This document shows, piece after piece, positions 60,958 through 63,067 of a stretch of DNA of 64,000 nucleotides; position 1 is the first letter of the stretch; the number at the start of each line of letters is the position of its first letter. Both the position numbers and the translations under genes were made by a program. Under the pieces are notes generated by a model, which did not search any database, was not told the DNA's origin, and saw only the letters and a list, made by a program, of their open reading frames with translations. The stretch comes from Escherichia phage vB_EcoM-Ro157c2YLVW. Location of the stretch: the sequence record NC_050153.1; one strand, written 5' to 3'.

Positions 60958-61161
60958 ATGACAATCGTAAAAACCCATACCGGCACCGTGATCACCAAAG
61001 ACGGGCCGCAGGTAAAAAAACTGCACCAAACAGAGCGGATGTGGGTCGTCGGCAAAAATGAGTTTTACCACAAAGATACCGGACGCCGCCACTTTGCAGA
61101 AAATACGCGCCGTCGACTGCTGTTAGACACCATCAAGCCTATCGAGGTGAAGCATGTTTAA
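60958..61161 (+). CDS. hypothetical small protein
   Basis: 67-aa ORF with GAAGAGG RBS. Confidence 0.45.
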   Translation: MTIVKTHTGTVITKDGPQVKKLHQTERMWVVGKNEFYHKDTGRRHFAENTRRRLLLDTIKPIEVKHV

Positions 61162-61393
61162 ACAGAACGAAAAAGCTATCGCTCAAATTGCTGATTATAT
61201 CCCGCGTGCGTGCCGGGGTATGCAGTTGCAGGAAGCCAAAGCGCGCCTGGAGAAAAAAATTGCGCTCTATATTGATGACGGCTGTGATGCTGCCGTTCTT
61301 AACGCGGCGTTCGCACCAGCTCTTAACAGTCATACTCGGGAGTCTTTTTTTTCGTGCATCGAAGCGCAACTCCGCAAAGGAGGCAGCCAGTGA
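61154..61393 (+). CDS. hypothetical small protein
   Basis: 79-aa ORF with GAGGTGA RBS. Confidence 0.45.
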   Translation: MFKQNEKAIAQIADYIPRACRGMQLQEAKARLEKKIALYIDDGCDAAVLNAAFAPALNSHTRESFFSCIEAQLRKGGSQ

Positions 61394-62091
61394 GCGAAAT
61401 TAATTACCGGGCACTGCGTGAGATAGCAAAACAGGCAACACAGGGCGAATGGGTCGCATTTATTTCGCCGGGTACTGGTACGTATGCGGTGCACACGCCC
61501 GGTGATGAACGATGTGAAGACGTTATCAAATGGACCGGCTTTGATGGACAGAAAAATGCAGAGAACAACGCTCGTCATGTTGCCGCGTTCAACCCAAAGG
61601 TTGCACTGGAGCTGCTTGGTGAAATTAAGTGCTTGGAGGACACAAATATTGATGCCACGTGCCGAATTTCAGAGCTTGAGACTAATCTCGCGGCGCTGGT
61701 GGCAGAGAACGCCGGGCTGAAACACGCAATGGCCGTAACTCTTGAGCATGTGTCGGTCACGGATGCAGGGCAGGCTGGTGTTGCTGCAATGATTATCAAC
61801 GATGCCCTACACCACAGCGAAACTCCAGCTACCGATGCTTTTCTGGCTGAAATTCGTGCGGAAGCACGCAACGAGGGGATTAACTATACCGCCAGCCGTC
61901 TTGCTGCTGCGTTCAATCACGGATTTATCAATAAGTCTTTGCGTGAAGTTTTCGACGTTACACGCATGATTTTGTCAGCGAAAGAAGAGTTGGCTAATGA
62001 AGCGCATCCGATTGATGGCCTGTCTGGTGAATATGCGGAGAAATCCCTTGAAGAATGGGCGGAACAGATTCGCAAAGGAAGCAGCCAGTGA
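61390..62091 (+). CDS. Ead/Ea22-like early protein candidate (paralog A), GTG start
   Basis: GTG after AAAGGAGG RBS; shares ATDAFLAEIRA segment and C-terminal LRKG..SQ with 62375-63067. Confidence 0.45.
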   Translation: MSEINYRALREIAKQATQGEWVAFISPGTGTYAVHTPGDERCEDVIKWTGFDGQKNAENNARHVAAFNPKVALELLGEIKCLEDTNIDATCRISELETNLAALVAENAGLKHAMAVTLEHVSVTDAGQAGVAAMIINDALHHSETPATDAFLAEIRAEARNEGINYTASRLAAAFNHGFINKSLREVFDVTRMILSAKEELANEAHPIDGLSGEYAEKSLEEWAEQIRKGSSQ

Positions 62092-62378
62092 ATATCGACA
62101 CGACAATAACGATCGATACGCTCCTAAATACCGGTCTGGCACTTCTCGGTTGGCTTTACATCATGTCCCGTACATGGCGATGGCTGGGTTCCATTTTCCT
62201 AAAACAGTGGAAAAAACGGCGCAAACAGGAACTACGCCAGAAGGCATTAGAAGCGTTCTATGACGCATTTGAGCTTAGCCGCATTGAACCAGGTACAACA
62301 GCCAGGATAGCGACAAAAGGCGACCTGATGATAGTGATGTTCCGACAGGAGAGAGCAGAGAAAGGGGAATCAGCATGA
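62088..62378 (+). CDS. small membrane protein, GTG start
   Basis: GTG after AAAGGAAG RBS; hydrophobic LLNTGLALLGWLYIM then basic stretch. Confidence 0.4.
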   Translation: MNIDTTITIDTLLNTGLALLGWLYIMSRTWRWLGSIFLKQWKKRRKQELRQKALEAFYDAFELSRIEPGTTARIATKGDLMIVMFRQERAEKGESA

Positions 62379-63067
62379 AATTTTCCAAATTTTCTGAGTT
62401 GGTGAATCGTATTTTGTCCAACAACCACAGCCATCGTCGCGATATGGATGTAACGATCGTTGTTCATTCGCCTGGCAGCATTGGTTCAACACCTTCAGTT
62501 GAGGTTCAGTCAATTCACGCTGGTTTTGATTGGGATTCCGGGAAAGTGCTTATTTTCCCATCACAGCCACTGACCACGCTAACACCAGAACAGATTACTG
62601 ATATCACTGATAGTGTGCGCAAAGGTCAGTCTTGGCACGCATATCAGGAATACAAGAAGCATCAAGAGCAGTTGGAAAAATTGTCGATTGAACTGGATGC
62701 CGCAAAACAGCGCATTGCAGAGCTGGATGGTAATCGCACGGCGCTGGCAGTGGAGAATGCCTCAATGAAGCTGTTTATCAGGGGCTGTTGCTACGTGTTT
62801 GATGGCCAGCAGGATGAAATATCTGATGCGTATATCTGCGCAACAGACGGAGGGATGCCGCAAATTCCAGCCACCGACGCTTTCCTGGCTGAAGCTCGGG
62901 CGCAGGGGGTAGAGATGATGCGCGAACACCCATCAATCAAACTTTGCTCTTTGACGCACATATGTGATGAGTTAGCCGCCCAGCTTCGAAAAGGAGAGCT
63001 GCATATGATGTTTGACGCTGGCATTCACATCAAAGGAGAAGAGCATGGAAATAAAACCAGAAGATGA
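62375..63067 (+). CDS. early protein, paralog B
   Basis: AAAGGGGA RBS; segment IPATDAFLAEARAQG. Confidence 0.5.
   Translation: MKFSKFSELVNRILSNNHSHRRDMDVTIVVHSPGSIGSTPSVEVQSIHAGFDWDSGKVLIFPSQPLTTLTPEQITDITDSVRKGQSWHAYQEYKKHQEQLEKLSIELDAAKQRIAELDGNRTALAVENASMKLFIRGCCYVFDGQQDEISDAYICATDGGMPQIPATDAFLAEARAQGVEMMREHPSIKLCSLTHICDELAAQLRKGELHMMFDAGIHIKGEEHGNKTRR

Follow-up and report, generated by a model that had tools for sequence, protein, structure and literature searches.

In the genome of Escherichia phage vB_EcoM-Ro157c2YLVW (NC_050153.1) we analysed a stretch of 64,000 nucleotides (nt), called the window in the following. It contains a block of short overlapping genes (here A to E, Table 1) in which one 21-nt sequence occurs at two gene boundaries. 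Each copy of this junction cassette holds the last six codons and the stop codon of one gene, together with the Shine-Dalgarno (SD) sequence and the GTG start of the next. The same cassette is found between otherwise unrelated genes of other phages and plasmids, homology to related replicons starts and ends in it, and the genes on its two sides are combined in a reticulate manner. We think it likely that the cassette is a conserved gene-boundary sequence, or linker, in which homologous exchange swaps accessory genes. The initial annotation of the window had suggested modular shuffling by recombination at a conserved junction; this agrees with the breakpoints, with the at least 56 flank combinations and at least 40 four-gamete quartets described below, and with a second, intragenic linker that behaves likewise.

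Sequence and anatomy of the junction cassette

The pattern CGCAAAGGA(G/A)GCAGCCAGTGA has exactly two matches in the 64-kb window, even if up to three mismatches are allowed (pattern CGCAAAGGARGCAGCCAGTGA). The number expected by chance, calculated from 100 dinucleotide-preserving shuffles, is 0.00, as none of the shuffled sequences contained a match. The two copies are identical at 20 of 21 positions and are spaced by 698 nt (family D6 of the repeat search). Chance identity, the objection that had been raised together with the initial annotation, does not explain such a repeat. Of the positions given there (61375-61395 and 62071-62091) the second are exact, while the first are two bases too high. 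Furthermore, both tails had been described as LRKG(G/S)SQ followed by a stop codon, a ribosome-binding site and a GTG. The latter three elements are present at both junctions, but LRKG is correct for copy 1 only: the open reading frame (ORF) at 61154-61393 ends in ...AQLRKGGSQ, whereas the ORF at 61390-62091 ends in ...EQIRKGSSQ.

The SD sequence is AAGGAGG in copy 1 and AAGGAAG in copy 2, in each case 6 nt 5' of the GTG, and start and stop codons overlap as GTGA. Both cassettes therefore have the arrangement of a coupling junction, that is, an SD sequence 5-9 nt from a start codon that overlaps the upstream stop or directly adjoins it. We take the GTGs to be real starts, since RefSeq calls the next genes from the same GTGs in plasmid pO111_2 (100% identical here), the Pfam matches of genes B and C begin at their residues 2 and 7, respectively, and the conservation of the downstream genes across related loci begins exactly at GTGA. 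With this anatomy, the junction would couple the translation of its two genes.

The folding of the cassette is not significant (z-scores of 0.57 and -0.12 around the two copies, and 1.11), and the cassette is absent among the inverted repeats found in the window. Rfam has no family at the cassette, its sole match being a sub-threshold GcvB at 60002-60085. A known or structured RNA at the cassette is ruled out by the Rfam search and the folding z-scores.

Could the two copies match by chance, or be no more than conserved ends of paralogous genes? Genes B and D are indeed paralogues. However, the shuffles predict no chance match even with three mismatches; gene A, which is ended by copy 1, is unrelated to gene B (they have no Pfam or PHROG family in common); and elsewhere the cassette also ends an unrelated family of 55 amino acids (aa). 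On these grounds we rejected this reading and give it next to no credence.

Flank combinations, homology breakpoints and possible mechanism

To see in which contexts the cassette occurs, we surveyed at least 120 IMG/VR loci that contain the exact 21-mer and nine annotated phage or plasmid loci. The junctions were searched with the wider pattern A[AG]GGA[AG]GCANNCAGTGA, and the flanks were typed using the regions 20-120 nt upstream and 10-110 nt downstream of each junction. The surveyed loci, at least 130 from phages, prophages and plasmids, contain at least 173 junctions of the cassette family. Among the matches listed there are at least 18 upstream and at least 21 downstream types in at least 56 combinations, and at least 40 quartets in which all four pairings of two upstream with two downstream types are present; the types are unrelated, with a median identity between them of 26-28%, which is the random level. 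The genes upstream of the cassette encode Ea22-like proteins, among which we count at least 10 different C-terminal modules, or belong to the gene-A family or the 55-aa family. Downstream there are DUF4752, a putative methyltransferase-like protein (a label taken from a motif alone), a 214-aa family, many Ea22 N-termini and several singletons. Similarity drops right after GTGA on the downstream side and about 6-14 nt before the 21-mer on the upstream side. In summary, the cassette has the properties of a boundary sequence: the flanks are dissimilar, the breakpoints coincide and the modules assort reticulately. The GGAAGC variant of the cassette is different in that 33 of the 34 matches listed for it show one combination, a B-type C-terminus followed by DUF4752, and it is essentially a lineage marker of that combination.

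In a scan of one genome per species (185,579 species, 596 Gb) the only exact cassette was found in a metagenome-assembled genome of the Terriglobia (CAWJEH010000031.1, locus L127, 565-585). Since by our estimate about 0.5 chance matches are expected in 596 Gb, this match is probably fortuitous and says nothing on the range of the cassette. The exact 21-mer is evidently absent from the representative genome of E. coli in the same scan.

The homology between the window and its relatives starts or ends within the cassettes, at 61373/61379 and at 62087/62091. Plasmid CP027223 is 97% identical at 61379-64000 and unrelated directly upstream, where its gene uses the 3' half of the cassette in another frame (...WEAEATSEQN, then stop). 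Phage PAS61 (Uetakevirus) has an arrangement reciprocal to that of the window, namely the C-terminal module of gene B (61826-62091, 98.5% identity), the cassette, and then a B-like N-terminus (61373-61623, 90%). The Punavirus vB_EcoM-813R1 matches up to 62091 and continues with a different gene. In PhiR46_1, homology begins at 62087 with DUF4752, behind a different upstream gene and a different ribosome-binding region, and pUSDA5905_1 and p1303_95 have an insertion at cassette 1, a gene of 645 bp. We also compiled a histogram of all ends of high-scoring segment pairs (HSPs) against 60000-64000. Cassette 1 has accumulations of starts at 61370-61399 and of ends at 61390-61399; at cassette 2 there is one of starts at 62050-62089, together with 36 ends at 62090-62099. 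Further piles are seen at the gene junctions 60940-60969 and 62350-62379, at two segments that encode ATDAFL, and at 62990-62999. A comparison of the block across related phage-plasmids had been proposed with the initial annotation, and homology breaks in both cassettes, as predicted there.

A separate observation concerns CP027223, where a 267-bp gene stands in place of window positions 60884-61378 and has GGCAACCAGTGAG, the 3' half of the cassette, on both sides (locus L122, 2246-2262 and 2499-2515). Judging by these repeats, it looks like a cassette-bounded gene insertion.

What is conserved in the cassette is apparently the nucleotide sequence. Throughout the surveyed loci the tails RKGG[S/N/K]Q are written with identical codons (CGC AAA GGA GGC ANC CAG TGA), the exception being three copies of the lysine variant (GGKQ) with CGA for arginine. 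Where the tails vary, the change is non-synonymous (S/N/K, and G/S in copy 2). The uniform codons, taken together with the out-of-frame use in CP027223, point to DNA-level descent or to a nucleotide-level function and not to selection on the peptide.

These data bear on a rival explanation, according to which the cassette is kept for its function, either as a translation signal or as a C-terminal peptide, and the joints are the result of illegitimate recombination and selection at gene boundaries. That mosaic joints in general come from illegitimate recombination followed by selection is the view that competes with the linker model. The architecture of SD, spacer and start is near-ideal, as a translation signal would have it, but the function of an SD sequence requires neither the invariant spacer GCAGCCA nor the CGC codon. 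The pattern A-x-(Q/E)-(L/I)-R-K-G extends 5' of the 21-mer with differing codons (CAACTC, CAGATT, CAGCTT), as might be expected of a selected peptide; within the tails, on the other hand, no synonymous variants other than the CGA copies were seen while non-synonymous ones were, and the 3' half is retained in CP027223 although it is read in another frame. Cassette-free boundaries at the same gene starts and a missing deletion product, to which we return below, also fit this explanation. Illegitimate joints, however, would not regenerate the same 17-21 nt where the flanks on either side are unrelated, in all the combinations and quartets counted above. We therefore consider it rather unlikely, although it deserves to be kept in mind, and prefer the view of the cassette as a linker for homologous exchange.

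A second joint lies within the genes. The segments at 61820-61860 in gene B and 62862-62902 in gene D are 83% identical over 41 nt, and the proteins B and D share 39% identity over 69 aa (E = 5e-7), a region that covers the coiled coil and PATDAFLAE(I/A)RA. The initial annotation was thus right in assigning a common ATDAFLAE(I/A)RA segment to these two genes. Among the matches listed, the motif TPATDAFLAE(V/I)RA(Q/E)G joins at least 15 preceding types to at least 12 types of C-terminal modules in at least 32 combinations. The Pfam Ead_Ea22 match of gene B stops at this linker, and breakpoints lie at 61826 and 62921; it is at 61826 that the homology of PAS61 and 813R1 resumes. HSP starts pile up at 61810-61849 for the linker of gene B, and for that of gene D starts are found at 62860-62869 and ends at 62910-62919.

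Gene D contains in addition a truncated third cassette, at which seven HSP ends are located (62990-62999). In other phages the same C-terminal module carries the full cassette and has the tail ...ELAAQLRKGGSQ before the stop (...AAQLRKGGSQ). In gene D the 3' half of the cassette is replaced and the frame reads into the leader of gene E. Here the module continues into 24 nt (62993-63016) and then into the gene E leader; the homology to phage ArgO145 starts at 63017.

The boundary between genes D and E belongs to a second junction family with the consensus CGCAYYAAAGGAGAG(TGAT/GAGC)ATG and the tail ...IRIKGE before the stop. Although the loci were not selected for it, this family has at least 67 junctions in the surveyed loci, with at least 15 by at least 16 flank types in at least 39 combinations, and HSP starts at 63890-63899 coincide with another copy in the window. 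Set side by side, the junction sequences are thus the 21-mer cassette and the CGCATCAAAGGAGAGTGATATG family. We also considered GGAGAGCTGCATATGA at the D/E boundary as an independent junction family and rejected it, as it has four copies and one window-like context only, and is a private variant.

With several such sequences at hand, one may ask whether a dedicated system acts on the cassette and actively shuffles accessory genes, for instance an integron-like or site-specific recombinase, or a nuclease or annealase with sequence specificity. In favour of this, the junctions differ very little in sequence over several virus genera, a locus may have up to three copies, and the gene in CP027223 is flanked by direct repeats of the 3' half. 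Yet the cassette has neither an inverted repeat or hairpin nor an Rfam family, the annotated loci that we examined have no recombinase gene as a consistent neighbour, and an integron integrase is not annotated in any of the stretches examined (whole replicons were not searched). Moreover, breakpoints occur in the ATDAFL linker and in the second family as well, and since three different sequences act as joints, general homology-driven exchange fits better than a specific site. A dedicated target is in our opinion highly improbable. A broader version would be a dedicated, integron-like shuffling grammar, made of the two families and the TPATDAFLAE linker and shared by lambdoid Stx (Shiga toxin) phages, Uetakevirus, P22-like phages and P1-like phage-plasmids. 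It would involve an annealase or nuclease that prefers these sequences, or the ...LRKGGSQ tail would be a functional tag that a gene gains on entering the array. This is speculative, and we give it only a small chance of being correct.

The exchange that we propose would work as follows. The cassette would be a translational-coupling junction together with the last six codons of the upstream gene, carried alike by accessory genes that are otherwise unrelated, in the Ea22/exo-xis-type blocks of lambda-like E. coli phages and in the copy of such a block on P1-like phage-plasmids. As many genes share it, there would be a patch of identity of 20-35 bp at the gene boundary, and a crossover in this patch would leave both neighbours intact and their translation still coupled. 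By homologous or relaxed-homologous recombination in the cassette and in the TPATDAFLAE patches, genes or domains could then be swapped, inserted or replaced in register. The crossover within the cassette may be the work of annealases of the Red, RecET or Erf type, or of RecA. Lambda Red recombines diverged sequences efficiently, with the joints preferentially in longer identical blocks (PMC2327257), which makes phage annealases plausible agents.

Several points weigh against this proposal. The evidence for recombination is comparative. For RecA-dependent exchange, 21 nt are short. Searching with a chimeric query, we were not able to find the deletion that would join gene A through the cassette to gene C, with loss of gene B, in 5,426 complete E. 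coli genomes; all 22 of the 22 full-coverage matches to this query represent the two-piece parental arrangement. The block, which had been called recombination-prone, can be called so on an evolutionary scale, but not in the sense of a frequent process. There are also cassette-free boundaries at the same gene starts, for example in PhiR46_1 5' of DUF4752 and in pUSDA5905_1 to the right of the 214-aa gene; illegitimate recombination with selection for intact genes therefore contributes too. Finally, the IMG/VR loci were picked by the exact cassette, which inflates the invariance at the primary junctions; the secondary junctions of these loci and the second junction family are unbiased by this selection.

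The gene block and its replicon

Table 1. Junctions, linkers and genes of the block (positions refer to the window)
Feature	Positions	Strand	Description
Junction cassette, copy 1	61373-61393	+	CGCAAAGGAGGCAGCCAGTGA; G variant; end of gene A; codons R-K-G-G-S-Q-stop, SD AAGGAGG, 6-nt spacer, GTG at 61390 overlapping TGA
Junction cassette, copy 2	62071-62091	+	CGCAAAGGAAGCAGCCAGTGA; A variant; tail RKGSSQ-stop; GTG of gene C at 62088
Truncated third cassette	62987-62996	+	CGAAAAGGAG, within ...AAQLRKGE...; in gene D
Linker in gene B	61820-61860	+	encodes (E)TPATDAFLAEIRA; joint between Ead_Ea22 domain and exchangeable C-terminal module
Linker in gene D	62862-62902	+	encodes (Q)IPATDAFLAEARA; repeat family D2, with the linker in gene B
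Second junction family, D/E boundary	63020-63047	+	GGCATTCACATCAAAGGAGAAGAGCATG; tail ...GIHIKGEEHGNKTRR-stop; SD AAAGGAG; ATG of gene E at 63045
Second junction family, another copy	63896-63920	+	TTGCGCACTAAAGGAGAGTGATATG; tail ...LRTKGE-stop, then ATG
67-aa ORF	60958-61161	+	phrog_1226; first of the chain of overlapping ORFs; syntenic with ArgO145 gp20
Gene A, 79 aa	61154-61393	+	phrog_1344, no Pfam; homologue of ArgO145 gp19
Gene B, 233 aa	61390-62091	+	Ead/Ea22-like; PF13935; phrog_368
Gene C, 96 aa	62088-62378	+	DUF4752 small membrane-type protein; PF15944; phrog_667
Gene D, 230 aa	62375-63067	+	mosaic paralogue of B; phrog_368 like B; own N-terminal domain phrog_6026
Gene E, 119 aa	63045-63404	+	phrog_1621; weak zinc-ribbon match; homologue of ArgO145 gp17

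The six ORFs at 60958-63404 overlap successively by 4-23 nt, and no promoter-like or terminator-like site was found on the plus strand at approximately 60100-63400. The block thus reads as one polycistronic unit, presumably with translational coupling between its genes. Two strong terminator-like hairpins, at 59400-59428 (plus strand) and 60008-60030 (minus strand), flank a 168-aa gene at 59453-59959 and probably mark the 5' limit of the block.

Gene B matches PF13935 (Ead_Ea22) with 95.8 bits (gathering cut-off 27, E = 4.3e-27) over residues 2-155; it consists of the N-terminal and coiled-coil part, the TPATDAFLAE linker, the C-terminal module and the cassette tail. The match of gene C to PF15944 is even stronger (143.8 bits, cut-off 27, E = 1.7e-42). 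Gene D is composed of a distinct N-terminal domain, a coil, the PATDAFLAEARAQG linker, a C-terminal module, the truncated cassette and a tail that overlaps gene E. The initial assignment of these genes as Ead/Ea22-like is borne out by Pfam for gene B, but not for gene D, which has no match to Pfam Ead_Ea22 even at E<=10, so that the gathering threshold is not reached, and has only the coil-plus-linker part and PHROG 368 in common with gene B.

Plasmid pO111_2 (NC_013370.1) of E. coli O111:H- 11128 matches the region 60900-63500 at 100% identity, and many further plasmids, about 90-100 kb in size, match it at 98-99.9%. Outside this region the window and pO111_2 are about 97% identical; the window does not have the IS1203 that pO111_2 carries between record positions 74898 and 76204, and has a replaced patch at 60237-60348 relative to it. 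Across 58000-61400, the best complete E. coli record has 99.0% identity. The annotated neighbours in pO111_2 are an S24 peptidase (humD-like), phd/doc and a terminase, and 813R1, with PmgS annotated nearby, is 91% identical over 60001-61473. These matches show the window to be closely related to the pO111_2-type P1-like phage-plasmids, and the phage-plasmid context given in the initial annotation is borne out by the 99-100% identity to such plasmids and by the P1-type neighbours. At the same time, the block is syntenic with the Ea22 region of the Stx phage ArgO145, where the order is PAPS reductase, gp20, gp19 (corresponding to A), cassette, one Ea22-like gene and gp17 (corresponding to E), and the matching segments are 92-93% identical. 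Judged by this synteny, it is a lambdoid-type accessory block carried by a P1-like plasmid-prophage.

Two genes next to the block are altered. The gene of the PAPS-reductase family is present as a 25-codon in-frame remnant at 60885-60960 (MHQIVSFSGGRASACLVHL, then FEEVVA and stop), and the ATG of the 67-aa ORF overlaps its TGA. The full-size gene has 873-879 bp in pUSDA5905_1 and ArgO145. Window positions 60801-60940 correspond to 1066-1205 of the pUSDA5905_1 locus and 60941-61000 to 2001-2060, with 795 bp missing from the window. A 243-aa gene, annotated as 3'-phosphatase/5'-polynucleotide kinase in 813R1, is intact in pO111_2, pUSDA5905_1, p1303_95 and 813R1. In the window (60154-60874) its coding sequence is broken up into two ORFs, 60154-60459 and 60410-60874, which overlap and are read in different frames; it also contains the patch replaced at about 60237-60348. 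Either a pseudogene that arose by frameshift, a mosaic variant or an error of sequencing could account for this.

Relation to known boundary sequences

That recombination in lambdoid phages uses short conserved sequences at module boundaries is a proposal of long standing (Susskind & Botstein 1978; Clark et al. 2001; both cited after PMC3029335 and PMC2327257), and the idea of linkers, in which identity at the boundary guides exchange and keeps order and regulation, is also summarised in PMC2839356. Like the lambdoid linkers of Susskind & Botstein (1978), Botstein (1980) and of HK620 and its relatives (Clark et al. 2001), as the citing papers present them, the cassette is a short identity at a module boundary with dissimilar flanks. 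Unlike them, it lies within coding sequence, being made of the upstream tail and the next start, and it is found not only in lambdoid, Uetakevirus and Stx phages but also in a P1-like phage-plasmid. The comparison supports the cassette as an instance of the lambdoid boundary-sequence principle, although Clark et al. (2001) enters it through the citing papers only. The paper on epsilon34 and the preprint on the O111:H8 plasmid contain nothing on the cassette.

The PeSL of T4-type phages (Arbiol et al. 2010, PMC2839356) are another kind of repeated regulatory cassette between small accessory genes in hyperplastic regions. They are intergenic sequences of about 100 bp that combine a sigma-70 promoter with a terminator hairpin and an SD sequence; their recombination inserts, deletes or replaces the flanked genes with expression preserved, and the corresponding mini-circles were demonstrated experimentally. 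The cassette differs from them in having no promoter, terminator or hairpin; it is an SD, start and stop signal inside a polycistronic unit, known from its sequence alone. A PeSL-like promoter/terminator cassette was accordingly rejected, there being no such sites within 60100-63400. The cassette also differs from the attC sites of integrons, as it has no hairpin-forming imperfect inverted repeats.

The variants of Ea22 have a common N-terminal and coiled-coil part and unrelated C-terminal domains, according to the sections of PMC10834534 that deal with them. Gene B and the surveyed loci show the same mosaicism, on a larger scale and here with Ea22-like genes on a plasmid-prophage. Those sections describe the mosaic at the level of the protein, and do not describe nucleotide cassettes at the joints or the TPATDAFLAE linker. 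The Ea22 proteins of lambda and Stx phages have been reported to be pro-lysogenic (PMC7093339). Gene flow between phage-plasmids and phages, at least with respect to the extent of exchange, is the theme of Pfeifer & Rocha (2024, PMC10879196); similarly, segments of the block on the P1-like replicon are 92-98% identical to integrative lambdoid phages and Uetakevirus.

The principle is therefore already known for lambda-like phages, and no new mechanism is revealed; what is added is the span over lambdoid phages and P1-like phage-plasmids. With the cassette, the linker model of phage mosaicism gains a concrete example that can be counted, and an unusually clean one, with a defined 21-mer, a clear role in expression and two sister elements. 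Annotators may take it as support for the GTG starts in these blocks. It also explains why Ea22-like proteins are scattered over many partial PHROG and Pfam families, and it links the gene pools of integrative lambdoid phages and of the P1-like plasmid-prophages of pathogenic E. coli.

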